Below are positions 8,588 through 31,348 of a DNA stretch of 64,000 bases, piece after piece (the first letter of the stretch is position 1; the number at the start of each line of letters is the position of its first letter). The position numbers and the translations under genes are program-made. The notes below the pieces were generated by a model. The model was not told the origin of the DNA, made no database searches, and worked only from the letters and a program-made list of their open reading frames with translations. Source of the stretch: Flavobacteriales bacterium (GTDB lineage: Bacteria > Bacteroidota > Bacteroidia > Flavobacteriales > Flavobacteriaceae); contig JBBSOK010000001.1 in NCBI GenBank assembly GCA_038259825.1, forward strand, positions 3,125 to 67,124, given 5' to 3'.

Positions 8588-8599
8588 TCTGATTTTGCT

Positions 8600-9442: not shown

Positions 9443-9444
9443 CC

Positions 9445-10014: not shown

Positions 10015-10018
10015 AATA

Positions 10019-13162: not shown

Positions 13163-13801
13163 ATGAAAATGAAAAAAGTGCTCAAAAACGTCAGTTTTGT
13201 CATTTTGCTTCTAAAAATGTGCATCATTTTTGGACAGGAAACTGCTACTCAAAAAAGTATAATTATTGATGTCGGACACGGTGGAAAAGATTCCGGTGCC
13301 ATTGGAATAAATGGTATCCAAGAAAAGGATATTGTACTAAATATCGCTTTGGAAATTTTGAAGCTAAACGAAAAGTCAGAAATGCCACTTGATATCTATT
13401 TGACGAGATATAGCGATACGCTTATTTCGTTATCAGATAGAACAAAATTGGCAAAAACATTGAAAGTGGATTTGTTCATTTCGCTGCATTGTAATCATTC
13501 CAATAATCCGAATGCTAGAGGAATTGAAGTGTATTTGGCAAATGCCACTTCACAATATTCAAAGGATGCCACTTGGTTGGCTTTTCAATTTCAAGCTGCA
13601 TTTAATAAAGAATTGGGATTTGAAAGTAGGGGTGTGAAGTTTGCAAATTTTCAGGTGCTACGGGAAACGATTGATTATTCTCCTAGTGTGCTTTTAGAAT
13701 TGGGCTTTTTGAGTAATGTCGATGAAGCAGTTTATTATCAGAAGTCCGAACCTTATCAATCTTTGGGTTTAGCAATATTAGAAAGTTTAATAAAAATTTA
13801 G
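13163..13801 (+). CDS. N-acetylmuramoyl-L-alanine amidase (Amidase_3 family)
   Basis: A signal peptide is followed by IIIDVGHGGKDSGAIG, then SLHCN and GFLSN motifs typical of AmiA/B/C-type amidases. Confidence 0.85.
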   Translation: MKMKKVLKNVSFVILLLKMCIIFGQETATQKSIIIDVGHGGKDSGAIGINGIQEKDIVLNIALEILKLNEKSEMPLDIYLTRYSDTLISLSDRTKLAKTLKVDLFISLHCNHSNNPNARGIEVYLANATSQYSKDATWLAFQFQAAFNKELGFESRGVKFANFQVLRETIDYSPSVLLELGFLSNVDEAVYYQKSEPYQSLGLAILESLIKI

Positions 13802-13891: not shown

Positions 13892-14860
13892 TTATAGAAT
13901 ATTCCAAATCATCTGCTGTAAATTAAAGGATTCTTCTTCAATCCATTCTTCTTTATCTATAAGGGTCTTAATAAGCTTTAATTCTCTTGTAGAAAAATCT
14001 TGCAATGCTAATCCTGAAAATGCTTTCGTCAAATCCCAATGGCTGTAATGGTAGTCAATATAGGTGCTTATTCTTTTATTAGGTTCATTTGGGTACAATA
14101 GATGAAAATCTTTGTTTCGTACTTTCAGCTTGGCTTTTATTCTCAAATAAATCTTTAAGCCAGCTAAATCCCAATCGCAGGAATAGTAAATTGGCTTTGA
14201 AAGATCGTTTTCATCTATATCATCAATAATAGCGATGTTGTTTCCTCCAACGTACCATAATTTCGTTTGTGTTTCTTTAGCAATCCAAGGTTGTTTTAGG
14301 AAGGATTTATTTTCACACATTATTACAGCTTTCGGATGCGGGCTATCAACTACCAATCGCCATTGATTTTCTTTTTTGTCCAACGGAAATTGTGAAATAT
14401 CTAAAATTTTAAAAACTGCTTTTCTCACGCTCGTTCTATTCTTAAGATATTTTGAGGTGTCAAAAAACTCATTTGAGAAGTCTTCTATGTTAGTTGGATT
14501 GTTCTTTAGTTCTGCCTTGTTTTCTGCAATGAACATTAGGGTCTTTACGTCCTCGATTGTAAAAGCTTTATTTGCTGTTGGCTTAATGTCATTTTCTAAT
14601 AAAAATTTCTTTGCTTCTTCATAAGGTTTTTTGAATTCCTTTTCGTAGAACGTCTCAAACCAATCTGTGGAAACTATAACTTTTATGTTGTCCGGCTTTA
14701 AGTCTAAAATACCTATTTCGTGAATGAGATGGTTAATGTAAGGATGCCCTTGAATTATAGCCTTGGTTCTTTTATTTCGATATAAATCATCAAGAGCCTT
14801 AAGTTCTTTCCAAGTAATGTTCTTATTCATTATCTGATAGAGATTGTATGTATTCGTCAA
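13892..14860 (-). CDS. jetD: Wadjet JetD (Toprim-type nuclease subunit)
   Basis: It is the last gene of the four-gene operon. The Toprim-like acidic motifs are MCENKSF (Glu) and YSCDWDLAG (DxD). An alternative start at 14830 gives an ATGAATAA overlap with the jetC stop. Confidence 0.75.
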   Translation of the reverse strand: MTNTYNLYQIMNKNITWKELKALDDLYRNKRTKAIIQGHPYINHLIHEIGILDLKPDNIKVIVSTDWFETFYEKEFKKPYEEAKKFLLENDIKPTANKAFTIEDVKTLMFIAENKAELKNNPTNIEDFSNEFFDTSKYLKNRTSVRKAVFKILDISQFPLDKKENQWRLVVDSPHPKAVIMCENKSFLKQPWIAKETQTKLWYVGGNNIAIIDDIDENDLSKPIYYSCDWDLAGLKIYLRIKAKLKVRNKDFHLLYPNEPNKRISTYIDYHYSHWDLTKAFSGLALQDFSTRELKLIKTLIDKEEWIEEESFNLQQMIWNIL

Positions 14861-17800
14861 TGTCTTCAGTCACTTCTTCAGAGAATATACCTAAAGGTGG
14901 TACAAAACTATCTACATTGGCCAAGTTGTTCTCATTCATAATATAAATGTATTGACCGTTTTCTGTTATTTCGCCTGCGGTTTCAATTGCCATTGTTATA
15001 ATTTGGTATTTTTCTTTTTTTGCTAGGTCGTGCAGCATATCATAATTGCTTCCCAAACCTTCTGCTTCGTCTATTGGCATAATTTTTAATCCTTCTTTGT
15101 CCTTTTCTTCAATTAGTGATAGCCTAGCCAAGCATAATAAAGCATTAGCCGCATAAGTTTGGCCATTGCTGCCAGAGTTGACCTCTTCGTTTTCGAGTTT
15201 TAACTCAAATACCAAATCAAAATAGGATTTTGGGTTCATTAAATCTTCAGGTTCAACTTTAGTACTACCACCAAGTTTTTGAAATGCTTTAATCATCATC
15301 TCATTAATATCAATTTCTTCGCGTAGCTCACTAAACAAACCTGTATAGTTGAGTTGGTTATGAAGCTGTTTCCTAAAGGTGGTAAGCCAATTATCTGGGT
15401 AGTGAATTGAATTTTTAGAAGTTAATGATGCTTTGTTTCCACCTGTTATACCTCTGTTTCCTTTTTTGAGATAGCTATCAATTTCATTAATCTTGGTAAG
15501 GTATCCTGTATAAACTTTATAAACATCATTAAATATGCTTCCCAATATTTCTACTTTTCTAGAACCGATTTCCTGGATATCTTGAGTCAGTTTGTTTAAC
15601 CTTTCTACAATATCGTTTTCAATTAAATCTTCATTGACTTTGATATTAGGAAATACAGTTGGCAGGAGATAATTTGCCAATTGTCCTATTGAAGCCGTTT
15701 CATCATACGGGAGGTCTTTAGTTATTATCTTTAAATATTCAATATAAGCGAGTTGTGCCTTATTTGCTTTAGCTTGAAAAGAATTGTTTCCACCATTATC
15801 AGGGTCTAAAGCTTCTTCAGTATTTTCGTCAAAATTAATTTTTGATTTAAAAAGCTGTTCGTTTGATTGTTTGGTTTCATCTATTTGCTCTTGTGCCAAA
15901 GTGAGTTGTTTTTCTTTTTGCTCTAAATCTCTATCTAGTTCTTTGATAGCGTCTAAAAGTTGATGTTTTAGATTTAAGAATGCAAGTCTAGATTTAATAG
16001 CAATATCCTTGGAGTACGTTTCGAAAAATAACTTTACATCAAAGTTCTTTTTTTTCAAGTTTTTTTCTTGTTCTGCCAGATGTTGTTCCTCTGAAGCTAT
16101 TCTTTCTTCTATTAATTGATTATTAATAGGAATATCAGCGTCAAAAAGTTCAGACTGTATTTTTTTAAGTCTATTCTGATGATTTTCTAGAAGATTTTTC
16201 CTGCTTGTAAATTCCTCATATTCCTTCTGCAGTGACTTGTATTTTTTAAGGATATTAGTTTTGTTCTTATGTGTCTGTAGATGAAGTTTGAAAAAATCTT
16301 CAGAAAGGCCTGCCAAACTGATGTCAATTTGGAAATTAAATAGCTCGTTTTTTCTTTTATAAAGTCCAATGTGCTTTTCAAGACTACTGTATTCAAAAAG
16401 TGTGTTTTTAAGGTGTTCTATATTTTCCTTTTTCGTAATAAGTTTGGTTAATTTTTCTTCAACCCCTTCCTTTAGTTTAGATAAAGATTTTATAATATCA
16501 TTTGGGTCTTGAACATTTAGAGCACGATGTTCTGAATAATTTATAAACTCATAGACACCGTCTAGATTGAGCCAAAACCCGTGTTTACTTTTATCCTTGA
16601 TATTTAAATCTATATTGCGAAAAAGCTGCTCTGGAAAAGGAACGTATCTTTTGGAATTTTCTTCCGAAGGTTTAAGCTTACCATATTTTTGAAAGTAGAT
16701 TAAAACACTTTCAAGTATATGCGATAGTGGAAATTCTATATTATCTACAGCCCAGTTAACCAAAGATTCAGGGTTGTTTAGATCTGAAAATCTTGATAAT
16801 GATTCCAGTTCTGCTATGTCCTTTTCTAATTCATTGATTTTTTTTGAATGTTCCTTGCTTTCTTCTTTGTAAGCAGTTAGCCAATTGGATGCCTTAAAAG
16901 CATCTAGAATATTATTAGTGGTAAGGTATTTTGTAAATTCTTGTAAAGCAGATTTATTATTATTCTCTTCCAGTTGAGAAGCAAACCATCTAGTTACTTT
17001 TTCAATATTATTATCGTGAGAAGAAAGCCATTTTTCTACTATTTCGATTTGAAGTTTGGACTGACCGATATCTACAAATTGTTTTGCAATATTATTTTTA
17101 TCTTCGTTTTTATCAGTTAGTTTGATAACTTTTTTCATAACGTCCAACAGCTCTTTCAAATCCTCTATTTTTAATTTCAGAATTTCATTTTCGAGAAATT
17201 GTAGCTCGTTCTTTTTTAAATTTAGTTCCTTGGCAATTTTGAGTTTCTTGGTAGTTGTTTTCTTTTTGAAAGTATTCCAGTAACTGAACTTTTTTACTAA
17301 ATATTCCGTGTAGATGGTCTTGTAGTTCTTTTGTTTTTCTAGTACAGTTTTCAGTAAAACTTGCTTGTCATTTATAAGTTCGATTTCTTGAGAATATCTT
17401 TTGTGTTCGTGGAAATCATTACTTATGTTTTCAACTTCTTCATTGTATTTTTCTATGATGGCATTTTTTTCATCATCGCCAAAAAGGAATTTTTTTAAAT
17501 TTTCAGATTCAGTCTTAAAACCTTTCCCTCTTGAAAAAGATCTTAAAATATTCGCATAAGTTTTGAGAGTTTCATCTTTAGTTAAATCTAATGACAAAAT
17601 AGCATTATCGTAAAGGATTTGATGGTAGTCCTTTCTTCTGAACGATTTTATCCTCGCAAACTCAACTCGTTCGCAAAGATTCTTAAGTGTATCAATCTTA
17701 TTGTCTATTATTAAATCCTTATTGAAAACTGGCTTATTCAAAGTAGTCAGACCATCCCAATCGTAGCCATTTTGAATAATGAACATTTCTGCCGCATTGC

Positions 17801-18125
17801 TTGTTCCTTCAATGTAAACCCCAATGACAAAATATTTTTTTGGGCTAACCTCAATGTTCAGAAAAATATAACCTCTAGATGATGAATGACCTTTTTTGGT
17901 AATTAGCATCCCTTTGACATCTCTTTGCTTATTGCCTTCGGTTGCAGATTTAAATTCATTTGAACCTACGAGAACCAACTGAATCATATCTGCAATCATA
18001 CTCTTTCCACTACCACTCTCGCCACTGAAGTCTGTTCTATATGGATGGAAAAGGTAATCAGCATTGAAATGCTGTTTGATACTAATCGTGGACAGACTAT
18101 ATATACGTGGATAATTATTCTGCAT
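14823..18125 (-). CDS. jetC: Wadjet JetC (SMC/MukB-like ATPase)
   Basis: The protein is 1100 aa with N-terminal Walker A GESGSGKSMIADM, a very long K/E-rich coiled-coil middle and C-terminal Walker B IMPIDEAEGLG. Confidence 0.8.
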   Translation of the reverse strand: MQNNYPRIYSLSTISIKQHFNADYLFHPYRTDFSGESGSGKSMIADMIQLVLVGSNEFKSATEGNKQRDVKGMLITKKGHSSSRGYIFLNIEVSPKKYFVIGVYIEGTSNAAEMFIIQNGYDWDGLTTLNKPVFNKDLIIDNKIDTLKNLCERVEFARIKSFRRKDYHQILYDNAILSLDLTKDETLKTYANILRSFSRGKGFKTESENLKKFLFGDDEKNAIIEKYNEEVENISNDFHEHKRYSQEIELINDKQVLLKTVLEKQKNYKTIYTEYLVKKFSYWNTFKKKTTTKKLKIAKELNLKKNELQFLENEILKLKIEDLKELLDVMKKVIKLTDKNEDKNNIAKQFVDIGQSKLQIEIVEKWLSSHDNNIEKVTRWFASQLEENNNKSALQEFTKYLTTNNILDAFKASNWLTAYKEESKEHSKKINELEKDIAELESLSRFSDLNNPESLVNWAVDNIEFPLSHILESVLIYFQKYGKLKPSEENSKRYVPFPEQLFRNIDLNIKDKSKHGFWLNLDGVYEFINYSEHRALNVQDPNDIIKSLSKLKEGVEEKLTKLITKKENIEHLKNTLFEYSSLEKHIGLYKRKNELFNFQIDISLAGLSEDFFKLHLQTHKNKTNILKKYKSLQKEYEEFTSRKNLLENHQNRLKKIQSELFDADIPINNQLIEERIASEEQHLAEQEKNLKKKNFDVKLFFETYSKDIAIKSRLAFLNLKHQLLDAIKELDRDLEQKEKQLTLAQEQIDETKQSNEQLFKSKINFDENTEEALDPDNGGNNSFQAKANKAQLAYIEYLKIITKDLPYDETASIGQLANYLLPTVFPNIKVNEDLIENDIVERLNKLTQDIQEIGSRKVEILGSIFNDVYKVYTGYLTKINEIDSYLKKGNRGITGGNKASLTSKNSIHYPDNWLTTFRKQLHNQLNYTGLFSELREEIDINEMMIKAFQKLGGSTKVEPEDLMNPKSYFDLVFELKLENEEVNSGSNGQTYAANALLCLARLSLIEEKDKEGLKIMPIDEAEGLGSNYDMLHDLAKKEKYQIITMAIETAGEITENGQYIYIMNENNLANVDSFVPPLGIFSEEVTEDIDEYIQSLSDNE

Positions 18126-18795
18126 CTTTTACTTCCTCTATCAAATCGTCAATCGTTTCGATTTGGGGTTGATAGTTAATTCGCAAGCGTTCAAAAGATG
18201 GCATTATTTTGAATTTGTTCTTCTCATCTTCTCTTTCCCATTTTAACCAGCCCAAATCCCCAAATTTTTCAAAAGCCTTGGAAATTACTGTTTCAAATCT
18301 TTGGTCACTCAAATCTGTACTCTTATCGGAAGAATTGTCGTTTATCAGTTTCCTTAATGCATTTTTCTGTTCTTCATATTCCTCATATAAGAGGGTAGTG
18401 AATTCAGATACACTATCCAGTTCAATGTTTCCGTCGAGCTTATACATTTTTAGGTATAACATTCCTATAATGATATATTCGCTTTTTAGATAATCCCGAT
18501 TGTCAGATGGTACATTGCCCTTACCGTCTTCATTAAAGTTTAAATAGTAGTAGTTGTTAAAGTCAGTACCTTCTTTTAAGAGATTTAAATTGAAAAAATC
18601 TTTATAATAGTTTTTAAGTGATTCATAGTTTTCAGACTCGTTTAAAAATCGATATAGGTTTACATTTAAGGGATATTCCCTTTGAATATGAATACCATTT
18701 CTAAGTGTGTAATCAAGTTTTGCAAAAATGCTTTTTGCCTTCTTATTGTTTAAAAAACTATAGGTATCTATTTTTTCTGTATTGTCATCTGCCAT
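18115..18795 (-). CDS. jetB: Wadjet JetB (MukE-like, DUF4194-like)
   Basis: It is an acidic 226-aa protein that overlaps both jetA and jetC. Its size and position fit the jetA-B-C-D order. Confidence 0.65.
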   Translation of the reverse strand: MADDNTEKIDTYSFLNNKKAKSIFAKLDYTLRNGIHIQREYPLNVNLYRFLNESENYESLKNYYKDFFNLNLLKEGTDFNNYYYLNFNEDGKGNVPSDNRDYLKSEYIIIGMLYLKMYKLDGNIELDSVSEFTTLLYEEYEEQKNALRKLINDNSSDKSTDLSDQRFETVISKAFEKFGDLGWLKWEREDEKNKFKIMPSFERLRINYQPQIETIDDLIEEVKDAE

Positions 18796-20087
18796 AAGGA
18801 AATTCCTTTTTTTGCTGTATCGTACACAGGTTCTTTTTTAACACCTACATTGTATTGATTCCTGTATGTAGTGTTCTTTCTTATAATATTGTGGGCTGTT
18901 TTAACAGCGATTGTAAGTTGGTCTTCTTTTAGAATTTTAAAGAAAAGAGGTGTAAAATCAAGAAAACCTTGTAGCTCTAATTCTTTTAATGCTAAATTGG
19001 TCCAATAACGAATTCTCTCTTTGTCCTGCTTCCATTTTAAGGTCTTTTCTAATAGTTCTTTTCTTTTAGAAACATCGACCTTTCTTATTGTAACTTCAAT
19101 GGGCAGTTTAGGACTAATTTCCCTTATTGGGATAACATTGAATTTAAGATTGTGAGTTGTGGACTTTACGACTAACCCTAAAAGGTTATTAGGAAGCTGT
19201 ATTCTTTTTGAACTTCCTTCCCTAGCTACTACTGATTGTTGTAATAAATAGTCAATGAACTTGTTAGTTTTTCTATCAAAATTCTTTTTATTGAAATCAT
19301 AAATGAATTCTCTAATTCGTGGCTTTATTTTTTCAATTCTTTTACTTACTTGTTCTAACTGGCTTCTAGAATTATCGTGAAAATTTTGAACCCTATAAAT
19401 ATTTGAGATATAGTTTTGTCCTTTATTCTCTTCGAGAAGACCAATTAAAAGGTCATCTATATCATAGGAAATCTGAAATGCATTTCTAAGTTCAGATGCT
19501 TGTTCTTTAATTACTTCAAGACGTATTTCAATACCTTTAAGAACATCGAGAATGCCTTGGTTTTCAGAATTTATTTCTGTTTTAAAATCCTTTACAGAAT
19601 CGTTAACCTGTTGGTCTAATATTTCTATTTGTGAAGTAAGTTCGGGAAGCCTAACCTCAAAATGGTCTTCAATCCATTCGTTGAAGTCTTTATTTTGCTC
19701 AATGTTTTCAGTGAGGCTTTTGTGCAATTCCGCGAAGAACCTTTTAATTTTCGCTGGATTGTACTTTTCGATTAAACGCTTTTCAATATTCTGGCAAAGT
19801 TCTAATCCGTATTTTTTGAACTGATAAGTTTTCTTAGAAACATTTCGCCATAGAAAAGACTCTTGAAACCTAAGAATAATAGCATTGTTTCTGTTGAATT
19901 CTGTCCTTGAACTTTCATTGCCCTGGTCCTTGAAGACCTTGTTTATAGTTGATATAATAATCTCTTCTGTGAAGTCTTTATCCTTGTATTTTGAATATAG
20001 AGATAGAAGAATTAATCCATCGTTTTTCTCAGGGATTAGCTTCTCATATTGGTCTTTTGCTTCTCTGTATAGATTAAAACTGTCCAT
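18768..20087 (-). CDS. jetA: Wadjet JetA (kleisin/MukF-like, DUF3375-like)
   Basis: It is a 439-aa helical protein and the first gene of the operon. It is assigned mainly from operon architecture. Confidence 0.65.
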   Translation of the reverse strand: MDSFNLYREAKDQYEKLIPEKNDGLILLSLYSKYKDKDFTEEIIISTINKVFKDQGNESSRTEFNRNNAIILRFQESFLWRNVSKKTYQFKKYGLELCQNIEKRLIEKYNPAKIKRFFAELHKSLTENIEQNKDFNEWIEDHFEVRLPELTSQIEILDQQVNDSVKDFKTEINSENQGILDVLKGIEIRLEVIKEQASELRNAFQISYDIDDLLIGLLEENKGQNYISNIYRVQNFHDNSRSQLEQVSKRIEKIKPRIREFIYDFNKKNFDRKTNKFIDYLLQQSVVAREGSSKRIQLPNNLLGLVVKSTTHNLKFNVIPIREISPKLPIEVTIRKVDVSKRKELLEKTLKWKQDKERIRYWTNLALKELELQGFLDFTPLFFKILKEDQLTIAVKTAHNIIRKNTTYRNQYNVGVKKEPVYDTAKKGISLWQMTIQKK

Positions 20088-20288
20088 AGGTTTATACCTA
20101 AAATAAATTACTTCTAACTATAGTGCACAATTTCCTAATTTATTATCAATTCTCACAATTAATAGGTGTTTAAGTGTTAATTATTTTATATTTGATGTTA
20201 CGAATCGGTAATTAAGCTCAATGTTAAATTGTTGCTTATAAGATTATTAATAATATTATCTCATAATTTTTTTGATACTTTTTAATGA

Positions 20289-22049
20289 ATGACATATGCC
20301 TTTATAGATGAAATACTTGTTGGTTACAATATCGATTTAGAAATATTACGACCAAACACTACACTCTACCGTGCTTCACTGTTGCAACATAAAGGTACAT
20401 TTCATTGCGGTGATACTTTTTTTGGAAACCAAGCAGACGAAACGGGAAAGTTTGTGTCATTCTTTGAAGCTACTAAGGTTAACCATTCTAACCTTGTTGT
20501 AACGCCCGAATATTCCTGCCCTTGGAATGCAATAATACATTTTCTTGAAAATACAGAAACAGCACCAGATACTGGTAGCCTATGGGTTATTGGTTGTGAG
20601 TCTATATCTGTTGAGAGAATACGAGAAATCCAAGACCAGTATTCAGGTGAAAATAATATTGAGATACTTTTTAATGATGATATTGGCGTAGGTAATGTAG
20701 GTGTCCTTCTTGACCCTTGTTGCTATATGTTTAAAGCCCAGAATCCCTATGGTGTTGAGAAGCTTATAGTATTAGTTCAATTCAAAACGCAACATATGGG
20801 CGTTTGGGAGAGCGATTTAGAGCAACAAAAGCTAATTCCAGGTGAACATATATATATTCTTCGCAACGACCCTGATTCAATCAATTTGCTTACGATTATT
20901 TGTTCAGATGCCTTGGTCTTCAATGGTGCAGCAATTTCTGCCCAGCATCCAGGAAGATGGGAAAATTTACCATACATTGTTCTCAGTATTCAAATGAATC
21001 CCAAACCAGCTCACCAAGGTTTTAGAAATTTTAGAGATGGTATTTTACGATTAAATAACAAAGACATAATATCCTTAAATTGGAGCTCTGAAAGCCAAAC
21101 TTCTTTTTCGGCCACTTTTTTTAATAAGTTTTCAAAATCTAATATAACAATTAGTACAGACCATATTACAAATGAGTCTCGGGATGAACAAAATCTAATT
21201 AAAAGTAATCACGATAAAGGACTTTATTATGCGTTTATTAAACCAAAACGGCATACATTTTACTTTAGTGCAGCTAATGAGTTTGCAGTACTCAGAATGA
21301 GAAAACCCTATGCGGGTGCTATCAATCCTGCTTTAGATAGACGTAGAGGGCCTACTATGGATTCCGTTTATCAATATAATTTAGAGCAAAACAATTTCGT
21401 GGAAATAGAAATTATAGACGATGGTCTTCAAAATTTCTTAATGTCTATTGGTATTAGTAGTAATAGCCTAACTGGTGGAGGATTGGACATACTAGACAAA
21501 GAACGATTGATAAACCTGTCAGTTGGTGAGATTGAAATAAAAAATGGGAATGTACAGTGGCAAATCGTTAACAAGCTAAAAAGTTTTTTAATGGAAGATA
21601 CTGAAATCATCAGAAGATACACAGTTACTTTTGATGAGGACGGCAATGAATTCAGAGCAACTCGACTCACTAAATTTGATGAGTTAAATTTAAACATACT
21701 CAACAGACCTGAGTTATTTCCAGATGTTATTGCCACTTTCAAGGATAATTGTGGTGAGGTAATGTTCCTGAATGATGGAAGCTTCAACTACCAATACAAT
21801 TTGGTAAATAACGATGATGAGTATGCAACCGTGGCTCATATAGGAAATAAGGGTAAGGGCGCTGCACAAGCTTTATTGAAAAAGTTAACCGAGCTTTTCC
21901 CGAGAGAGTATAGACAAAACAATAGGATAGTGGTATGGTATAAGCCTAACGTAAATGATTATGACTGTGTAGCCACACCAGTACCTAAAATTTCTAATAC
22001 AGAACCTAACGACTTTACATCGATTACCAAGACTGATGAATCAAGATAA
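20289..22049 (+). CDS. Uncharacterised protein with an N-terminal nitrilase-superfamily (CN-hydrolase)-like domain and an unknown C-terminal domain
   Basis: A Glu-Lys-Cys signature appears in canonical order and context: LVVTPEY (E74), VQFKTQHMGVWE (K166), LIPGE, then LLTIICSDALVF (C205). The spacings are 92 and 39 aa. Residues from about 300 to 586 have no motif I recognise. Confidence 0.55.
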   Translation: MTYAFIDEILVGYNIDLEILRPNTTLYRASLLQHKGTFHCGDTFFGNQADETGKFVSFFEATKVNHSNLVVTPEYSCPWNAIIHFLENTETAPDTGSLWVIGCESISVERIREIQDQYSGENNIEILFNDDIGVGNVGVLLDPCCYMFKAQNPYGVEKLIVLVQFKTQHMGVWESDLEQQKLIPGEHIYILRNDPDSINLLTIICSDALVFNGAAISAQHPGRWENLPYIVLSIQMNPKPAHQGFRNFRDGILRLNNKDIISLNWSSESQTSFSATFFNKFSKSNITISTDHITNESRDEQNLIKSNHDKGLYYAFIKPKRHTFYFSAANEFAVLRMRKPYAGAINPALDRRRGPTMDSVYQYNLEQNNFVEIEIIDDGLQNFLMSIGISSNSLTGGGLDILDKERLINLSVGEIEIKNGNVQWQIVNKLKSFLMEDTEIIRRYTVTFDEDGNEFRATRLTKFDELNLNILNRPELFPDVIATFKDNCGEVMFLNDGSFNYQYNLVNNDDEYATVAHIGNKGKGAAQALLKKLTELFPREYRQNNRIVVWYKPNVNDYDCVATPVPKISNTEPNDFTSITKTDESR

Positions 22050-25000
22050 TTTAGAACAAATATTGCCTGATGGTTATTTAGTCAAGAACTTTGACAACGT
22101 GGAGCAAATTGCTAAGATTGAGCATAATTTTGGAAGTGCCTTAATATCAAAATATTTTATAGATTTAAAATCTGAATATAAAGATATAAATATTAAAGAG
22201 TACCAAGAAAAGTACATATCCAAAGATTATTTTGACGCTGACGGAAATGTACAATGGAACTATTATATAATTTTTGTTAGAGAAAATTTTGATACAGATA
22301 ACAAGCGAGCAATTGAGAAAGACGAAAGTTATGCAAGAAAATTTGTTTTTACGTCAGAAGAACTCAAAAATTACCTGCGTTACCAGCAATCGGATATTGA
22401 AAAAGATGAGGATGTTGTGTCCAGATGGAAACAACAATTAATGGCTGTTGACCTGCAAGAAGTATTCAGTGATGAGCCATACAATCAGGCTGTACCAAGA
22501 TTTGTCGAAGGAAAATCTAAAAAGCCAGATGAGCTTAACCCAATTGATAATAGACCAAACGACGATGAAGATTTTTTATTACAAAAGGTCAGACATCTTA
22601 AGTTAAATGATTCATATAGAAAATTTCCTGAAAAGCGAGATTTTACATTGGGAAAGGTGAATCTTATAACAGGGCCAAATGGGGTTGGTAAGACCTCATT
22701 AATGGAAGGCCTTGAACTTGTAATTACAGGAAACAATTCAAGAAATAATTCTGCAAATAATCATAATGATTGTATTTTGGCTGAATATGTTTCTGACGGC
22801 AAACCTGTTTCTGATGCCTATACCAATTCACTAGGGAAATATAAGGCAAGAGACTACTTCTGGTACAACAATCCTCTAAGTAGATTCAATGAGGCATATA
22901 GAAGTTTTAATCGATATAATTTCTACAATTCAGATAGCGCATATCAACTATCTAACAATCCAAATAGCGAAGAGCTTACCAAATATCTTTCGGCCATAGC
23001 TCTCGGCACAGAATTCGGTTCAATCCGAAAGAGGCTCATTGGTTTTCAAGAAAGATTAAATAAAGAACAAAACAGAATTTCTGATATTATATCTCGGGAA
23101 GAAGAAACTATAGTCAATTCTGAAGTGCAGATTGAAAAGCTAAAAAAGATTTCGAATCCAGAAGTTTTGTTTAAGCAGTTTATTGAGGATGCAAAGTCAA
23201 TAAATTGGCAAAAGCCACTACCTGAAAACCCAGAAGACAAAACTGAACTTTTTGAAAAGGATTATAAGACATTGCTTTCTTATTTAAACGCAATAGTACA
23301 TTCTAAAGTGGTTAGCCATTCTAATGCATTGGACAGACTTAATATACTTGAGGAACTTAAGAAAGACCTAGACCAAAAAGAAAAAGAAAAAAGCACCTTT
23401 AGAAAAGAACATAAAATATTAGAGTTAAGATTAAAAAAACTTAAATCGAACAAAGAGTTAATTAATTGGGCTCTAAAATATCTCGAAAGTCCAAATAATT
23501 TTAGAATTGAGTCTATTAAAGATGAAATAAATAAACTGGAACAAGATATCACGCGATTCGATTCTTTCGATAGTAATATTAAAAAGCTCAATCTTGCGGA
23601 AATTAGCAAGAGCCAAAAGAACATCATTCAACTGACTCGTGATAATGAACAGACTAGAGAGGAAAAAGAGAATAAAAAAGTAGAACTGCAAAGTCAACTT
23701 AAAACATTAAAGTCAACCGTAGATAAGCTCAAATCGGTTATTGCAGAGATAAGATATTATGGAAAAGAATTTGTAGAGATTAAAGGTGACGAGACAGACG
23801 CATGTCCTCTATGCGAAACGCCACAAACGAAAAGCCAGTTACTTCAAAAAGTTGAAAAAATTTATGATGAAGAAGGTGAGGCAAAAAAAATTGAAGGCTA
23901 TAATAAATCCATTGATAAGTTAGAAAAGGAAATTTTGGGAATAGCGAACGAATTAAAAGTCTTAGGTAGTTACCAGAATAATATTAAAAACATTCTATCT
24001 CAAGAGGATGTAAGTAAAACGCTTAATAACGTAAGCACCATTCTCCAAAAGAAAAGAGAGGAAATTGATACTCAACGCAAACAGTTAGAGGAATTGGAAA
24101 CTCTTGAAATCAATTTAAGGTCTAAAGGTTTCTCAGAAGATGATTTACAAGATTTGCAAAAACGAATGATCACAAATTTTAAAGAACTTCATTTTACTAA
24201 AGATGGCAAAGAGGATTTTGAGACCTTTAATAAAAAACTCATAGTCCAAGTCGATGAAACTCATGAAGCAATAGAGAACAGCAAGAAAAAGATAGATGAA
24301 TTAGATTCTAAAATTAAGGAATTGGTTGATAGTAAATATAAAGTTGATGATTATGATACAAAAATTGCTTTTGATATAAAAGAGCTTCAATCACTTCTTG
24401 AATTATTCGATAAAATCAAAAAGATTGTGTCTTTGCAATCCAAAGACTTTATCGTGGAAATTCGTCATTCTGTTGAAAGAGTGTATGAAAAGTTCAAAAG
24501 TTTTAAATCACTTTTGGTGAAATTCGAAGAGCTTAATCTGGCTAACAGTCTTATTATAAAAGCCGATGAAAAGATAAAGAACCAAACCGAAAAACTCAGT
24601 CGAGTTAAATCTGGACTGAAAGTCATCGATGAGATTCTTACGAAGGATAGCCAAGAAAACATACTCGACCTTTTCTTTAGAAAGAATGAAGAAGAAATCG
24701 GTGAAATATTTACTAGAATTCATTCGCCCAAAGAATTCACGGGTTTGTCTATAGATTCTGGCAAAATAAATCTAGAGAAAGGTCTTTTGGGTACAGCCAC
24801 ACCTATAAACGAAATCAGTACTGGTCAAAGAAGTGCACTCGCTTTATCCATATTTTTAGCTTTAAACAGAAAACTTAAAAAGGGGCCAAATATTATAATT
24901 TTTGATGACCCTGTCACTTATACTGACGATTTAAATATTCTTTCATTTTTGGACTATTTACGAACGCTCATTATCAATGAATCAAGACAGCTCGTTTTTG

Positions 25001-25098
25001 CTACGGCAAGTAAGAAAATCGCTGGACTTTTCGAAAAGAAATTCAATTTTTTAGATGAAGATTTCAAAACTTTTGAGCTTTCAAGGACAGATTTCTAA
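22036..25098 (+). CDS. Rad50/SMC-like ABC ATPase with a coiled coil, a CxxC zinc hook and an extra N-terminal domain
   Basis: Walker A is ITGPNGVGKTSLMEGLELVITG (K219). A K/E-rich coiled coil of about 700 aa carries CPLC at residues 590-593, near its midpoint. The signature-like motif ISTGQRSALALS and Walker B IIIFDDP follow. The start overlaps the upstream gene by 14 nt. Confidence 0.8.
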   Translation: MNQDNLEQILPDGYLVKNFDNVEQIAKIEHNFGSALISKYFIDLKSEYKDINIKEYQEKYISKDYFDADGNVQWNYYIIFVRENFDTDNKRAIEKDESYARKFVFTSEELKNYLRYQQSDIEKDEDVVSRWKQQLMAVDLQEVFSDEPYNQAVPRFVEGKSKKPDELNPIDNRPNDDEDFLLQKVRHLKLNDSYRKFPEKRDFTLGKVNLITGPNGVGKTSLMEGLELVITGNNSRNNSANNHNDCILAEYVSDGKPVSDAYTNSLGKYKARDYFWYNNPLSRFNEAYRSFNRYNFYNSDSAYQLSNNPNSEELTKYLSAIALGTEFGSIRKRLIGFQERLNKEQNRISDIISREEETIVNSEVQIEKLKKISNPEVLFKQFIEDAKSINWQKPLPENPEDKTELFEKDYKTLLSYLNAIVHSKVVSHSNALDRLNILEELKKDLDQKEKEKSTFRKEHKILELRLKKLKSNKELINWALKYLESPNNFRIESIKDEINKLEQDITRFDSFDSNIKKLNLAEISKSQKNIIQLTRDNEQTREEKENKKVELQSQLKTLKSTVDKLKSVIAEIRYYGKEFVEIKGDETDACPLCETPQTKSQLLQKVEKIYDEEGEAKKIEGYNKSIDKLEKEILGIANELKVLGSYQNNIKNILSQEDVSKTLNNVSTILQKKREEIDTQRKQLEELETLEINLRSKGFSEDDLQDLQKRMITNFKELHFTKDGKEDFETFNKKLIVQVDETHEAIENSKKKIDELDSKIKELVDSKYKVDDYDTKIAFDIKELQSLLELFDKIKKIVSLQSKDFIVEIRHSVERVYEKFKSFKSLLVKFEELNLANSLIIKADEKIKNQTEKLSRVKSGLKVIDEILTKDSQENILDLFFRKNEEEIGEIFTRIHSPKEFTGLSIDSGKINLEKGLLGTATPINEISTGQRSALALSIFLALNRKLKKGPNIIIFDDPVTYTDDLNILSFLDYLRTLIINESRQLVFATASKKIAGLFEKKFNFLDEDFKTFELSRTDF

Positions 25099-25761
25099 TC
25101 ACTTCCGTTTATCCCCAACCCTCTTATCAAACGCAATTAAATTAAACAGTTCACGCATTCTGCTACGTACACGGTTTCCGTAGCGTTCTTCCAGTTCTTC
25201 AGCGTTGAGATTAGTGGTGGCGTGGGTTTTAATTTTCTTTTTGGTTTGGAGATATAATTCGTAACGAGACAAGAGTACTTCGCCCATTACGTTCAAATCT
25301 TTGCCATAAAATCTTCCAGCAGGTTCAATGCCTAAATCGTCAAAGCAATAGAATTTGGTATTGCCAAATTCCTCGATCGTCTTAAATCCAAGATGGTTAA
25401 AACTAAACGCTACATTCCGGCAGGGAATCATTTCGTATGGTCGTTGCATTGGCACGATATGTCGCATTAGTTTCATCAAAGTAGTCTTTCCACAGCCAAC
25501 AGGTCCAGAAAGAAGAATGCCCTTGTCGGGGTCGATATCATCTTTCAGACAATTTTCTTTGTCTTTGATGAAATAGTGACATAGCTTACGAATGATAACT
25601 GTGTCGTCATCATAGATTCTAAATTGTTTTCCAAAGAGCAACTTCCCCTTTGCATCCAAATAAATTAGGATTTTGTCAAAATCGTATAGAACGCTTTTGC
25701 CATCAAATTTTCCGAGCGAATATTCCACGCAACCTTCGGTAATTTTAGAGGGGTTGTCCAT
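25099..25761 (-). CDS. DnaC/IstB-like AAA+ ATPase (putative helicase loader of the ICE)
   Basis: Walker A is LLSGPVGCGKTTLMKL, Walker B is CFDDLGIE, with sensor THATTNL and YGNRVRSRMRE. I chose the internal Met (MDNPSK) at 25761. The longer ORF to 25989 overlaps the upstream gene extensively. Confidence 0.65.
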   Translation of the reverse strand: MDNPSKITEGCVEYSLGKFDGKSVLYDFDKILIYLDAKGKLLFGKQFRIYDDDTVIIRKLCHYFIKDKENCLKDDIDPDKGILLSGPVGCGKTTLMKLMRHIVPMQRPYEMIPCRNVAFSFNHLGFKTIEEFGNTKFYCFDDLGIEPAGRFYGKDLNVMGEVLLSRYELYLQTKKKIKTHATTNLNAEELEERYGNRVRSRMRELFNLIAFDKRVGDKRK

Positions 25762-26497
25762 AGTCTTTGTTTTTAGTGGTTCGCAAGTTGTCCTTGATTT
25801 GGGACGGTTGTTTTTTGTTTGGTTTGTTTTCCTCGGAATATAATTCTGTTCTGTCCATCCAGTTCGTTGCCAAGGCACGCCAATCTCTAATTTCATTTCC
25901 ATCGCTTGTTTGCCAGTTCCGAGTTTCATAATGCTCGAAGAATTTTTTTCCTTCATCAGCATTAAAACCTTTTTCAATAAAAAAATCAATAACGGCCTGC
26001 CAGCCTTTTGGTTGTTTTATATTGTTTACTTGTTTGGTATTGTTTATAGTAGATACCAATGCTTGTCCACTGATGGGATGGTGCGAGTCCAAAGCTTGTC
26101 CATTTTTGGGATGGTGTTGGTACACTACTGGTTCACGTATGGGATGGTACTGTTCCGCAAGCTGTTCTAATATGGGATTGTACCGTCCCGTAACTGGTTC
26201 ATCACTTGTCCCAATAATGGTCATCTTAATTTTACTGCCTTTATATGGATTGTTGGATGGGAAATAGGATAGGTAAAGCCAAGAATCTAAATCCCTAACA
26301 CATCTGTGGTACGTGGATTTTGAGCCAATTTTAGAACAGCGCATTAAATCCCTTCGATTTACGTAAAATTCGTCTGCAAAGCGACTACTGTTCCATTCTT
26401 GAAATAGCGCCATATACAAACTGATATGTGTAGGATTAAGGCGATCATCAAAGTAGAATTTTTCAAAAGCCGCATTAAGTAGCTTTATATAGTTCAT
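25745..26497 (-). CDS. Winged-helix-like DNA-binding protein, possible replication organiser partner of the ATPase
   Basis: The N-terminal half (YFDDRLNPTHISLYMALF...STYHRCVRDL) looks winged-helix-like. The central part has four 11-aa repeats and the C-terminal segment is W-rich. It overlaps the downstream ATPase gene by 17 nt. Confidence 0.35.
   Translation of the reverse strand: MNYIKLLNAAFEKFYFDDRLNPTHISLYMALFQEWNSSRFADEFYVNRRDLMRCSKIGSKSTYHRCVRDLDSWLYLSYFPSNNPYKGSKIKMTIIGTSDEPVTGRYNPILEQLAEQYHPIREPVVYQHHPKNGQALDSHHPISGQALVSTINNTKQVNNIKQPKGWQAVIDFFIEKGFNADEGKKFFEHYETRNWQTSDGNEIRDWRALATNWMDRTELYSEENKPNKKQPSQIKDNLRTTKNKDYGQPL
26061..26192. repeat. Four tandem 33-bp repeats with a GGGATGGT core inside the winged-helix gene
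   Basis: Core copies lie at 26075-26082, 26108-26115, 26141-26148 and, as GGGATTGT, 26174-26181. The period is exactly 33 bp. The first two units also share GCTTGTCCA. Confidence 0.8.
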
Positions 26498-26500
26498 CTT

Positions 26501-26785
26501 TTAAGAATTTAGACCGTGCTGCACACGGTTGGCATCCATCACTTTTTGAATTTCCTCAGTATCGTAGTAGATGATGCCACCAACTTTGTTATAGGGCAAA
26601 GTACCATTGATACGAAGGTTCTGAAGTGTGCCTGGACTCACTTGAAGTAAATCCATAACCTCGGAAGATTTAAGGTATTTTTTGAGCTTTCCCTTGGATT
26701 GATTGGTAAGCAGTTTCTTGATGTCATCGAGTAATTCCATTTTGAAATCTCGAAGATCGTCTGTAGTAATTATTGATGTTGGCAT
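26501..26785 (-). CDS. Excisionase-family helix-turn-helix DNA-binding protein
   Basis: It is 94 aa. The peptide LKSSEVMDLLQVSPGTLQNLRINGTLPYNKVGGIIYY is a typical MerR-superfamily Xis/AlpA-type HTH. Confidence 0.7.
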   Translation of the reverse strand: MPTSIITTDDLRDFKMELLDDIKKLLTNQSKGKLKKYLKSSEVMDLLQVSPGTLQNLRINGTLPYNKVGGIIYYDTEEIQKVMDANRVQHGLNS

Positions 26786-27107: not shown

Positions 27108-27944
27108 TTACTCTTCGCTTTTATCCATTTCTATAAGTAAGGATGTGGAAAGTTGGTCCAGAAAAAGGGTTCTGCTATTCTTCCTTTTTTTGATTTCTTG
27201 AAAGGTTTTATAGATGTCTTTTGGTGTAAAGTCAAATATCTGTTGCAGTTTTTTAGAAACTTGCATTATGCTTTGGCTATCCTGCTTTCCTAAACCTTTT
27301 GCACAGAGCGCATAAAGTAGTTCCACGTAATCTGTATTAGAAAATGGCCAATGTATTTTTTCTATGGGTTTAATGCTTCTCGATTTACCATTTATACCTT
27401 TTCGAATTTGGAATTTTTTCTCATTTAAATAAACTATTAACGAATCATAAGCCTTGTATTTGCCAAGAAGCATATCCCGAGGTGTGCAAAATTCAGGGTC
27501 TTGGAAATAGAATTTTGAGGTTGTAATGTGAAATGTATCAAGGTAATCCCGTGTGTAGTATTCTTTGTCAAAATGGGTAGCCCCAGAATTGATATATCGT
27601 CCAAAATCTATATTGATAAGAAAAAACCTATTTATCTTTTTGACTTTCTTTCTAATGAATTTTAATTGGTCATCCTTATTTCCTTTTGGAAACTGAACTT
27701 CAAAAGAATGGATTTCTGAAAAGTAAATTAAGTTTATAAGCGGAATTTGTTTGATTTCCTTAAAGAATTTTATTTCTTCCTTAATAGTTTGGAATTCTTT
27801 ATAGAGTATTTCTTTTTTATAGGTTGTCAATAAATTACGACAAGACCTAATAGAACGGTTAGCCCTTTCTAAAATATTATCATATTGATTTTTTATATCA
27901 TCAAGGTCCTGAAGCAATATTTTCGATAGTATTTGAGAATTCAT
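27108..27944 (-). CDS. rteC: RteC-family regulatory protein
   Basis: The C-terminal region (IHWPFSNTDYVELLYALCAKGL...IYKTFQEIKKRKNSRTLFLDQL) matches the conserved RteC pattern of Bacteroidota conjugative transposons. Confidence 0.7.
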   Translation of the reverse strand: MNSQILSKILLQDLDDIKNQYDNILERANRSIRSCRNLLTTYKKEILYKEFQTIKEEIKFFKEIKQIPLINLIYFSEIHSFEVQFPKGNKDDQLKFIRKKVKKINRFFLINIDFGRYINSGATHFDKEYYTRDYLDTFHITTSKFYFQDPEFCTPRDMLLGKYKAYDSLIVYLNEKKFQIRKGINGKSRSIKPIEKIHWPFSNTDYVELLYALCAKGLGKQDSQSIMQVSKKLQQIFDFTPKDIYKTFQEIKKRKNSRTLFLDQLSTSLLIEMDKSEE

Positions 27945-28214: not shown

Positions 28215-29132
28215 TTATTCCACTTTCTTACGAAACCGTTTTAAGAACTCACGTCTATTTTTGACACTTGTCTTTTTAAAAATATTTGAAGCGTGTTTTG
28301 ATACGGTGCTTTCTGCAATGAATAAATCTTTAGAAATATTTCTATAGCTTAAATCACTTAAAATGGAAAGAGCAACCTCAATTTCTCTTCTTGTCAAATC
28401 TTCATAAAAAAACTTACGTTCAATCGCTTCGATCTTTTGCTTTTTTTTGAGAGCGAACACTTCGTGCATTCGGTTATTATTTTCTATAAAGTATAAATAC
28501 CTATCTACTTCAATAGTGGTTATGGCATAGAAGGCCAAGTTCATCACTGTAAAGGTCAACCATTGGTAATCTCCAATAACTGTACAAATAGGTAACAATG
28601 CTATACTTCCCACACTTATAATAGATAATCTATTACGCTTTAAAATAAAGGCATTCGAATTACTTGGATTCGAAATTCGTCTGTAAAATATGAATAGAAA
28701 AATAATGGCAGCTACTGAAATTGGTATGGTAAAAAGAATTCTAGCAGAGGCCAAAGAACCTGTGACAAGATAGGGAACTAAAAATAGAGTGATAAAACTA
28801 ACGGTGGTAAATATGGCAAGATTCCGAATTGAAGAATTAAATTTCAGAACGACAATATCATACTCCTTATAGAGATAATATACAATGTAAATGCACAATG
28901 TGATTGCCACACTATATGTTATGATGTATTGAAGTATAAATGGTCCAGGGAAATTATCAGTAGGAAGAAACCCGCCAGTAGCGTTATAGACAACAAATAA
29001 TAAACCAAGAATTAGAAACCGCTTAAAGTTACTGCCCGGTTTCTTTCCAGAAAAGTAGAGTGTAAACAATACTATAACCGTATCTACTAATAGATAGAAG
29101 AACGTCGTCCAATGTATTGAAGTTCCAAACAT
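28215..29132 (-). CDS. Membrane-anchored LuxR-family transcriptional regulator
   Basis: About 6-7 TM helices are followed by a C-terminal LuxR HTH (LTRREIEVALSILSDLSYRNISKDLFIAESTVSKHASNIFKK). Confidence 0.7.
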   Translation of the reverse strand: MFGTSIHWTTFFYLLVDTVIVLFTLYFSGKKPGSNFKRFLILGLLFVVYNATGGFLPTDNFPGPFILQYIITYSVAITLCIYIVYYLYKEYDIVVLKFNSSIRNLAIFTTVSFITLFLVPYLVTGSLASARILFTIPISVAAIIFLFIFYRRISNPSNSNAFILKRNRLSIISVGSIALLPICTVIGDYQWLTFTVMNLAFYAITTIEVDRYLYFIENNNRMHEVFALKKKQKIEAIERKFFYEDLTRREIEVALSILSDLSYRNISKDLFIAESTVSKHASNIFKKTSVKNRREFLKRFRKKVE

Positions 29133-29140
29133 TTATATTC

Positions 29141-29626
29141 CTATTCATTTTGCTCAAATTTGTTAGTTTCTAAATTTTTGGTAACATTTTTCCAATGAAA
29201 AATTTGTCCGTTCATAGCAATATAAACATCCGGTTTTAGAAATTGCAATGAGCTTATTGCATACCCTAAATTAAAAGATGCATCTGTGTCAGCTGATGAA
29301 CCTAATATGAAAGAACCAACTAAAACAATGGTTTTGTTCAAGTCTTTCTTTCCTATATATTTTGCAGTATCTTCCATTGTGAAAGTGCCGTGAGTTATTA
29401 ATATCTTTAAAGCCTCAGATTCAACAATCTTGCTGACTAATTGTTCTCTATCGCTCTCATTTATTGCTCTACTATCTTTTTTAAATACACTTTCTATGGT
29501 ATATTCAAAATCAGCATTGGCAGCTGTTAGAAAATCTTTAATTGAAATATTTGAATTCGTTTTATCTTTGCCGTCAATATAATCAAGACCTTCAATTGTA
29601 CCGCCTGTAGTTAATATAGCTATCAT
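29141..29626 (-). CDS. Asparaginase N-terminal-domain-like protein
   Basis: MIAILTTGGTIEG contains the TGGTI catalytic-Thr motif of L-asparaginases. At only 161 aa it corresponds to a single domain. It ends 8 nt upstream of the LuxR gene. Confidence 0.55.
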   Translation of the reverse strand: MIAILTTGGTIEGLDYIDGKDKTNSNISIKDFLTAANADFEYTIESVFKKDSRAINESDREQLVSKIVESEALKILITHGTFTMEDTAKYIGKKDLNKTIVLVGSFILGSSADTDASFNLGYAISSLQFLKPDVYIAMNGQIFHWKNVTKNLETNKFEQNE

Positions 29627-29797: not shown

Positions 29798-31129
29798 TCA
29801 AAAATTAATTACACTGTCTAAGGCTTCATCTGCATCTTTGTGAATGAAATTAGCCTGATAATTTAAGGTAGTTTTCAAATCACTATGCCTATATAATTTC
29901 TGAAGCATTAATGGATGAATTCGGTCACCAGCAATATTTCCAAAGCTGTGACGCGCGATGTGGTTTGAGAGGTTTTTATCAATGCTGCATTCTAAGGCGA
30001 TTCGTTTTAAATACTTATTGAACAGTTTAGTGGCATTTCTTGTTTTCTTAAATACTTCCTCGTTGTCAGAAATGTTTGTGGTGCTAAGAAATGGAAATAC
30101 ATAGCCATTGTTTTCAGCTTTATATTTCTTATATAGGCTTAAAATATTGACTGCTTTTTCAGGTGTTTTTAAACTAACAGGCTTTTCATTTTTATGCATT
30201 ATGTAAAGGAGTCTATCGTCTTTAAAATCTGACCATCTTAATTGTACAGCATCGGAAATTCTGATTCCTGCAAAGTAAAACGCAATTAACCAAACGTTTT
30301 TGGTATGCCAGATAGAAGTATTTGGTTCTAATTCCAAGATTTCAATCTTTTCAATTTCCTTAGAGGTAAGACCAATCTTATGGCTGGAGCCTATGCGGAT
30401 TTTTTCTTTTTCTCCACCAAAGGGGTAGTACTTTACATCAACAACTCCAATTTTGATAGCTTTGTTGAATAGTGTACGTATAAAAATAAGTTGATTGGTA
30501 ATTGTACGCGTTTTTTGTCCAAGATAGACCAAGCAGAAGTCCTTGTATTTATCTAAAAAAGACTCGTTGATGTCTTGAAACTTTAATGTTTTATCCTTTT
30601 TAAAATACGCTACGGAATCCATAAAAGAATGCTTACCCTTTCTTCCTTTACTTACACGTTCCTTTCTGCGTTCCTTAATCTCCTGGATAATGACTTCTTT
30701 TCCTTGAGCTGTGTTGAGGCTTAAAAACTCTTCTAAGTTGTAAAGAATAGACAGTTCGGATTTTGCAACGGAAAATGTGCCGCGCTCATATTTGTTTTTT
30801 ATTCTATCTGAAGCAACGGCAAAAAATGATTTCGAACCTCCTGCACCCTTTAATTTTTGCTTGACTTGCTTAGTTGTGAGTTCTTTCTTGGAATCGAAAT
30901 ATATATCATTGGCCTCAGTAAGCTTTTTCATTAAGAAGTTATTTAACTTCTTTGAATAAGGATGCGTTCTTTTCACCTTTCCCGCATTTTTATCCCAATC
31001 TTTTTCAAGTACATACTGACCAAGCCACTTATAGTTGGTTTTATAGTTTTCGCTGATACGAATGGCAAGGGGTATTGTATTGTCTTTGCGTATCATATTT
31101 TTTCTCAAAACAATTTTTATACTCGCCAT
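29798..31129 (-). CDS. int: Tyrosine-type site-specific integrase
   Basis: The protein is 443 aa with an N-terminal arm-binding-like domain and C-terminal catalytic motifs (AGIRISD, HIARHSFGN, LYRHSDLKTTLNY). It is adjacent to the tRNA remnant. Confidence 0.9.
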   Translation of the reverse strand: MASIKIVLRKNMIRKDNTIPLAIRISENYKTNYKWLGQYVLEKDWDKNAGKVKRTHPYSKKLNNFLMKKLTEANDIYFDSKKELTTKQVKQKLKGAGGSKSFFAVASDRIKNKYERGTFSVAKSELSILYNLEEFLSLNTAQGKEVIIQEIKERRKERVSKGRKGKHSFMDSVAYFKKDKTLKFQDINESFLDKYKDFCLVYLGQKTRTITNQLIFIRTLFNKAIKIGVVDVKYYPFGGEKEKIRIGSSHKIGLTSKEIEKIEILELEPNTSIWHTKNVWLIAFYFAGIRISDAVQLRWSDFKDDRLLYIMHKNEKPVSLKTPEKAVNILSLYKKYKAENNGYVFPFLSTTNISDNEEVFKKTRNATKLFNKYLKRIALECSIDKNLSNHIARHSFGNIAGDRIHPLMLQKLYRHSDLKTTLNYQANFIHKDADEALDSVINF

Positions 31130-31346: not shown

Positions 31347-31348
31347 CT

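Follow-up and report, generated by a model that had tools for sequence, protein, structure and literature searches.

A probable two-gene Lamassu locus with a nitrilase-type amidase effector in a Flavobacteriales bacterium

Described Lamassu systems consist of a gene for an effector, LmuA, which joins an N-terminal enzymatic domain to a C-terminal domain, followed by a gene for an SMC/Rad50-like ATPase, LmuB; in these systems sequestered monomeric LmuA is released and becomes active by oligomerisation (10.1101/2025.06.23.660979; PMC12663957). The family, also known as ABC-3C or DdmABC, occurs with or without a third component, LmuC. Long Lamassu (Haudiquet et al. 2025) are distinguished by an LmuB with a Walker B motif of the hhhhDD form and one CxxC zinc hook, together with a long coiled coil (PMC12663957), and in type I Lamassu LmuC is absent (PMC12663957; 10.1101/2025.06.23.660979). 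'C-N hydrolase' is listed among the N-terminal effector domains of LmuA in a passage of a 2023 review (PMC10586767, citing Krishnan et al. 2020, on ABC-3C, and Millman et al. 2022). Here we report on a stretch of 64,000 nucleotides (nt) from a Flavobacteriales bacterium (assembly GCA_038259825.1, contig JBBSOK010000001.1, positions 3,125 to 67,124 of the forward strand), hereafter the window, and within it on a gene for a protein of 586 amino acids (aa) which overlaps the gene of an SMC/Rad50-like ATPase. With a probability that we put at roughly 0.78, this protein is the LmuA effector of a two-gene, long-type Lamassu anti-phage/anti-plasmid system and works by a nitrilase-type amidase mechanism. 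The two genes and the parts of their products, in window positions, are:

20289..22049, plus strand: lmuA-like gene, 586 aa from an ATG start, encoding an N-terminal nitrilase-fold domain and a C-terminal domain
20289..21323, plus strand: N-terminal nitrilase/CN-hydrolase-fold domain, aa 1-345 (AlphaFold2 model, Foldseek, hhalign)
20508..20510, plus strand: codon GAA of E74, predicted catalytic base in the motif TPEYSxPW; invariant, aligned to NIT2 E43 and AmiE E59
20784..20786, plus strand: codon AAA of K166, predicted catalytic lysine in the motif QFKT; invariant, at a strand end, putatively equivalent to the lysine of known enzymes
20820..20822, plus strand: codon GAG of E178, predicted second catalytic glutamate, followed by LIPG; invariant, aligned to NIT2 E128
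20901..20903, plus strand: codon TGT of C205, predicted nucleophile in the motif (I/L)ICS(D/E); near-invariant, aligned to NIT2 C153 and AmiE C166
21324..22046, plus strand: C-terminal domain, aa 346-586, delimited by family conservation and presumed from LmuA architecture to dock on LmuB
22036..25098, plus strand: lmuB-like gene for a 1020-aa SMC/Rad50-like ABC ATPase (PADLOC LmuB and Pfam matches), overlapping lmuA by 14 nt
22036..22620, plus strand: aa 1-195 of LmuB, an N-terminal extension that precedes the ATPase head; family matches start later
22672..22695, plus strand: Walker A motif of LmuB, GPNGVGKT, aa 213-220 (motif scan; AAA_29 P-loop match)
23803..23814, plus strand: CPLC of LmuB, aa 590-593, the single zinc-hook-type CxxC in the coiled coil (motif scan)
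24892..24909, plus strand: Walker B motif of LmuB, IIIFDD, aa 953-958, of the hhhhDD type (motif scan)

The assignment to Lamassu is carried in the first place by the partner gene. Its product finds its best matches in the PADLOC LmuB models PDLC03865 (2.8e-30) and PDLC03859 (2.4e-28) and further ones in the Pfam families AAA_23, AAA_13 and SMC_N, and the motif scan placed a signature TGQ at aa 929. A full-length LmuB-like gene lies directly downstream of the lmuA homologue in 77 of 80 genome loci, the median junction being a 4-nt overlap and 70 of the 77 junctions falling between -115 and +9 nt. Homologues from Leptospira, from a Sediminibacterium metagenome-assembled genome (MAG) and from a metagenome are directly followed by an SMC_N gene of 1024-1030 aa, and the Polaromonas conjugative plasmid pPNAP01 carries the pair under the annotations 'hypothetical protein' and 'AAA family ATPase'. 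The lmuA-like gene is translationally coupled to the gene of the LmuB-like ATPase, and the pair is a conserved cassette across many phyla. The role of immune effector, which a reading of the window made from its letters alone (hereafter the sequence-only reading) had proposed for the 586-aa protein, gains support from this overlapping gene and from its retention downstream of the homologues.

The locus shares with described Lamassu the order of effector and ATPase genes, the two-domain architecture of the effector, profile matches of its ATPase to LmuB hidden Markov models (HMMs) at 1e-28 to 1e-30 and the location in a defence island or mobile element; with the long type it shares the hhhhDD Walker B (IIIFDD) and the single CxxC (CPLC) of LmuB, and with type I the lack of lmuC. 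It differs in the size of LmuB, which is ~1020-1030 aa in this family against the ~800 aa quoted for long Lamassu (PMC12663957), in a conserved ~195-aa N-terminal extension of LmuB that belongs to no recognisable family, and in the effector itself, which has a cysteine amidase-type domain and not a nuclease. Pfam and PADLOC matches to LmuB begin only at ~aa 195-202; the extension is conserved in the homologues, where tblastn matches begin at query residues 1-57. With a median junction that overlaps by 4 nt, the two genes leave no space for lmuC between them, and the extension of LmuB might stand in for LmuC. A fusion of LmuC into aa 1-200 of LmuB was considered and rejected, since PADLOC gives no match there. 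In the 'C-N hydrolase' class of LmuA and ABC-3C proteins, LmuA likewise begins with a carbon-nitrogen hydrolase domain, but ABC-3C is defined with the middle component LmuC, which is absent from the window locus. Every LmuA model of PADLOC misses the window protein, another point of difference from known Lamassu; one of these models, PDLC03850 (604 positions), gave weak matches in 4 of 71 family members (E>=0.001), and the one match that was inspected is colinear and pairs residues 69-210, the region from E74 to C205, with profile positions 66-209. A related LmuA class thus probably exists in current tools, yet misses the protein of the window. DefenseFinder presumably holds a subtype named 'Lamassu-Amidase', on whose name no literature text was found.

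The lmuA-like protein belongs to a large family. The database search retrieved 156 homologues, all of ~580 aa and none with a Pfam domain, and those named by their source are called only 'hypothetical protein' or 'uncharacterised protein'. A profile of the N-terminal domain, run against 1.8 billion representative proteins, collected ~690 clusters at 50% identity with the same ~580-aa architecture; this search returned the family only, reaching no canonical CN hydrolase and no bridge to one. The closest relative among genomes is found in a Dokdonia MAG (76% identity), and the genome loci span Bacteroidota, Spirochaetota, Firmicutes, Nitrospirota, Planctomycetota, Verrucomicrobiota, Acidobacteriota, Proteobacteria, Actinomycetota and archaea. 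The archaeal lmuA-lmuB cassettes (Methanosarcina sp. KYL-1, Methanolobus profundi and a Bathyarchaeota MAG) are 27-33% identical to that of the window and keep the catalytic-type residues intact; the occurrence of the same cassette in archaeal genomes implies that this Lamassu subtype has moved horizontally between domains of life.

Conservation was assessed in an alignment of 71 of the 156 homologues, with identities down to 26%, and in a second, independent set of 78 copies from genome assemblies. Residues T72, P73, E74, Y75, Q164, K166, E178 and C205 are invariant in the former, and in the latter E74 was counted in 79/79, K166 in 78/78, E178 in 78/78 and C205 in 78/79; both sets hold further residues that are invariant and specific to the family, namely W99, E104-S105, Q235, N237, N264-W265 and H308. 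Since the Glu/Lys/Glu/Cys pattern is essentially invariant in two independent sequence sets, it is real and under strong selection. The sequence-only reading had located the open reading frame at 20289-22049 together with four motifs, and the list of reading frames and a script check of positions found all of them exactly there: LVVTPEY is aa 69-75 and contains E74, VLVQFKTQHMGVWE is aa 161-174 and contains K166, LIPGE is aa 182-186, and LLTIICSDALVF is aa 200-211 and contains C205. Its expectation that E74, K166 and C205 would be conserved among homologues was borne out by both sets. Of the 'K-x-H-L...E' block that it described, K166 is indeed invariant, but the terminal glutamate of that block is E174, a variable position; the conserved glutamate is E178, four residues on.

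The fold of the N-terminal domain was assigned from an AlphaFold2 model of high confidence (predicted local distance difference test, pLDDT, 92.1; predicted template-modelling score, pTM, 0.90). Foldseek returned 48 matches in the PDB at E<=0.001, every one of them to the nitrilase superfamily and with a probability of 1.00, at target-normalised template-modelling scores of ~0.45-0.53 over ~290 columns. The top match is the formamidase AmiF (E=6e-7), and the others include aliphatic amidases of Nesterenkonia and Geobacillus/Pseudomonas, N-carbamoylputrescine amidohydrolase, D-carbamoylase, NIT-type enzymes and the glutaminase domain of NAD synthetase. The first match outside the superfamily is RNase Z (E=7e-3, probability 0.51). 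Other alpha-beta-beta-alpha folds, such as metallo-beta-lactamases and EEP proteins, were rejected, as the single match of this kind stands at rank 50 with that probability of 0.51 and the invariant residues include no metal-binding His/Asp motif. The first ~345 residues are, on the modelled structure, a very divergent four-layer alpha-beta-beta-alpha domain of the nitrilase superfamily, in agreement with the similarity to this fold that the sequence-only reading had anticipated. The order of secondary-structure elements in the model is consistent with it: E74 lies in strand 69-77, K166 comes directly after strand 157-165, E178 sits in a short helix (177-181) and C205 occupies the junction of strand 199-204 and helix 205-210, which is the nucleophile-elbow position.

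The predicted catalytic residues were mapped by aligning the family profile with two templates, using hhalign in local mode, the global mode having given a meaningless alignment. The first template aligned 50 omega-amidase/NIT2 sequences drawn from viral and metagenome loci, its NIT2 query being 99% identical to chimpanzee NIT2; the search for NIT2 homologues made in building this template yielded only vertebrate orthologues above 70% identity. The second combined AmiE, in a sequence identical to 2UXY over residues 1-341, with the G. pallidus amidase. Against omega-amidase/NIT2 (P=1.3e-4) the alignment pairs E74 with E43, E178 with E128, PG with PG and C205 with C153, and when single family members are aligned to the NIT2 HMM with HMMER, both glutamates and the cysteine pair in the same way and in colinear order. 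Against AmiE (P=6e-4) it pairs E74 with E59 and C205 with C166, placing LVVTPEYS beside LVVFPEYS and IICSD beside IICDD. Relative to the templates, the window protein has a longer hairpin in front of K166 and a shorter loop behind it. Because K166 is invariant and stands directly at a strand end of the model, we infer that it is the equivalent of the catalytic lysine of the templates.

Among known enzymes the branch 2 amidases AmiE (2UXY, 2PLQ) and AmiF (2DYU, 5G3O) are the best structural matches of the N-terminal domain. The likeness extends to short motifs (LVVFPEYS in AmiE, LVVTPEYS in the window protein; LIICDD in AmiE, TIICSD in the window protein) and to the Glu-Lys-Glu-Cys arrangement (for the lysine, putatively). 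The window protein is, however, only ~12-14% identical to these enzymes in sequence and shows no similarity to them at the level of HMMER; the spacing from the lysine to the second glutamate is 12 residues against 8, and the domain forms one chain with a 240-aa C-terminal domain and is coupled to an SMC ATPase, whereas AmiE and AmiF are metabolic enzymes that form constitutive homo-oligomers. With the omega-amidases of the NIT2/Nit branch the window protein shares an identical E-x3-L-x-P-G spacing after the second glutamate, but its hairpin before the lysine is ~7 residues longer and the biological context is unrelated.

Several results weigh against an amidase effector of a Lamassu system. 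The window protein, searched whole and as each of its halves, has 0 matches in Pfam, NCBIfam and PADLOC, and the PF00795 profile, by which the sequence-only reading had expected its nitrilase assignment to be confirmed, did not detect it: no Pfam family matched at E<=1, the protein fell below the gathering threshold, and in a Pfam scan of the 71 homologues PF00795 touched just 1 member (E=0.0076). It is fold and profile-profile evidence that supports membership of the CN-hydrolase superfamily; searches of the PDB by sequence, with the protein or the family profile as query, returned noise or nothing. The HH probabilities of the two template alignments are just 53% (NIT2) and 28% (AmiE), and in every profile alignment the template lysine lies 3-7 residues from K166. 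Of the Glu/Lys/Cys blocks of CN hydrolases described by the sequence-only reading, those of E74 and C205 align to catalytic residues of NIT2 and AmiE, and for K166 the correspondence is putative. As for the system, there is no lmuC (in the window, as in 70 of 77 homologous loci, lmuB follows lmuA without an intervening gene), and a phmmer search with LmuB gave no match to solved LmuB chains and weak ones to Rad50 only. The C-terminal domain of the effector, which has the invariant residues G354, P355, E405, R443 and N504 in the 71-sequence alignment and reaches a pLDDT of 79 when modelled alone, differs from solved LmuA structures in showing no detectable similarity to them, the best E-value of its fold search against the PDB being 0.49. 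The solved LmuA C-terminal domains are themselves reported to differ greatly from one another (10.1101/2025.06.23.660979). Without a fold match among PDB structures, the domain is assigned its putative role, docking on LmuB, by the general architecture of LmuA.

The chemistry of the domain could be other than that of an amidase acting on small molecules. With the same fold and the same Lamassu context, LmuA might be an acyltransferase, like Lnt, or a protein deamidase or N-terminal amidase, like Nta1, acting on a macromolecule, for instance a factor of translation or replication. Acyltransferases and protein N-terminal amidases are established members of the superfamily, the fold match extends across it and takes in the glutaminase domain of NAD synthetase, and the additional family-specific invariant residues from W99 to H308 point to a specialised pocket. 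The best folds and the PEYS and IICxD motifs are nonetheless those of small-substrate formamidases and aliphatic amidases, and there is neither a membrane segment nor a partner domain of the Lnt type. We consider this alternative unlikely.

Much more doubtful is that the nitrilase-like domain serves as a non-catalytic scaffold or sensor, with toxicity or defence coming from the C-terminal domain or from the N-terminal extension of LmuB. Neither aa 346-586 of LmuA nor residues 1-195 of LmuB have a recognisable fold or family, and no alignment pins the equivalence of the lysine; but four catalytic-type residues are invariant in ~150 sequences from bacteria and archaea at identities down to 26%, pseudoenzymes normally lose such residues, and in other Lamassu systems it is the N-terminal domain of LmuA that acts as the effector (PMC12663957). 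A housekeeping or element-maintenance function of lmuAB, for example in repair by a Rad50-like ATPase and an accessory amidase, might be suggested by the Rad50 heads that are the only solved sequence relatives of LmuB and by the 'double-strand break repair' Gene Ontology term on a RefSeq homologue, but it is hardly credible for a pair whose ATPase best matches LmuB defence models (1e-28 to 1e-30), which is spread patchily over many phyla and archaea on plasmids and integrative and conjugative elements (ICEs), which lacks an Mre11/SbcD-like nuclease partner, and whose neighbours are Wadjet genes in the window and restriction-modification, SIR2 and Mrr genes at homologous loci elsewhere.

For the Lamassu amidase effector that we favour, a mechanism can be proposed. 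If solved Lamassu complexes are a guide, a single LmuA would be docked through its C-terminal domain on the LmuB dimer as an inactive monomer; upon sensing of foreign DNA ends or replication structures by LmuB, it would be released and self-associate. According to passages of two papers on the nitrilase superfamily (PMC4700190, PMC7616060), all functional members are dimer-based and the activity of true nitrilases depends on higher oligomers. Since activity in this superfamily requires a dimer or a higher oligomer, the oligomerisation that follows release could complete the nitrilase-type active site, and a fold whose functional members are dimer-based would be naturally suited to activation gated by oligomerisation. 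Cys205 would then attack an amide-type C-N bond through a thioacyl intermediate, E74 acting as base and K166 and E178 stabilising the intermediate, and the destruction of an essential amide-bearing metabolite or the deamidation of a protein would lead to growth arrest or abortive infection. In fold and in the motifs PEYS and IICxD, the domain comes closest to aliphatic amidases and formamidases with small substrates. In its most far-reaching form the proposal is that the locus offers the first tractable example of an immune system in which an SMC sensor commands a cysteine amidase as killing module, as opposed to a nuclease, NADase, protease or lipase, activated by release-driven oligomerisation and directed at a non-nucleic-acid target (an essential amide metabolite, a cofactor or a protein side chain), with the extension of LmuB replacing LmuC; this is tentative, and we would put the odds somewhat against the proposal as a whole.

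Because the review already counts 'C-N hydrolase' among the effector domains of LmuA (PMC10586767), systems of this kind are known from the literature. Within Lamassu, the family is large and neither annotated nor characterised, and it stands out by a very long LmuB, the N-terminal extension of LmuB and the lack of LmuC. The literature searched yielded no characterisation of the C-N hydrolase type of LmuA effector. To our knowledge, Lamassu are among the most widespread defence families, with a mechanism worked out for nuclease effectors only, and we know of no Lamassu whose target is a C-N bond outside the DNA backbone. A CN-hydrolase effector would mean that the cell is killed or arrested by the breakage of C-N bonds outside the DNA backbone. 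The need of nitrilases for oligomerisation fits the logic of Lamassu nucleases, sequestered as monomers and active as oligomers, and gives a concrete model of activation. If the proposal in its most far-reaching form is right, the family, bacterial and archaeal and made up of ~690 clusters at 50% identity, would define a distinct and currently unannotated Lamassu subtype; because Pfam, NCBIfam and PADLOC all miss the family, tools built on their models would not call its lmuAB loci.

The surroundings of lmuAB in the window comprise the following features:

532-1593, plus strand: PIN_12-domain protein, left end of the element
1931-5032, plus strand: 1033-aa N6_Mtase/Eco57I/MmeI-type protein, left end of the element
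6167-12421 and 27108-27944, minus strand: Bacteroidetes conjugative-element genes (TraG P-loop ATPase, TraM, DUF4138 [TraN-like], RteC), element markers
13163-13801, plus strand: Amidase_3 (N-acetylmuramoyl-L-alanine amidase) gene by family match, between the conjugation genes and Wadjet
13892-20087, minus strand: Wadjet-like jetABCD cluster by library matches, four genes, divergent from lmuAB
20088..20288, no strand: divergent intergenic region of 201 base pairs between the starts of the jetA-like gene and lmuA (map of reading frames)
25099-25989, minus strand: 296-aa P-loop protein with weak DnaC/IstB-like NCBIfam matches, directly 3' of lmuB and convergent with it
25745-26497, minus strand: 250-aa reading frame of no family, overlapping that of the 296-aa P-loop protein
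26501-26785, minus strand: 94-aa HTH_17 (excisionase-type) protein
28215-29132, minus strand: 305-aa protein with a C-terminal LuxR/GerE helix-turn-helix, adjoining the next reading frame
29141-29626, minus strand: 161-aa reading frame matching the N-terminal part of the asparaginase family only
29798-31129, minus strand: tyrosine integrase, element marker
31276-31347, plus strand: tRNA-Met directly beside the integrase, element marker

An ICE integrated at tRNA-Met appears to carry the defence genes as cargo, and housekeeping genes (Na/H exchanger, Era-like GTPase, M1 peptidase) begin straight after the element. The Wadjet-like cluster encodes a 439-aa protein in the position of JetA without a family match, a 226-aa MksE/MukE-like protein, a 1100-aa MukB-N/JetC-like protein and a 322-aa protein with weak matches to JetD_C/JetD3; because the cluster is divergent from lmuAB, two SMC-based defence systems stand back to back. 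At the left end of the element, the PIN_12 protein and the 1033-aa protein, the latter probably a restriction-modification enzyme of type IIG or IIL, are more cargo of the defence type. The three convergent genes 3' of lmuB may represent replication or excision functions of the element or a remnant of the IS21 type, and the 161-aa asparaginase-like reading frame may be a fragment. The product of the Amidase_3 gene has, despite the word 'amidase', a fold unrelated to the nitrilase-type domain of LmuA.

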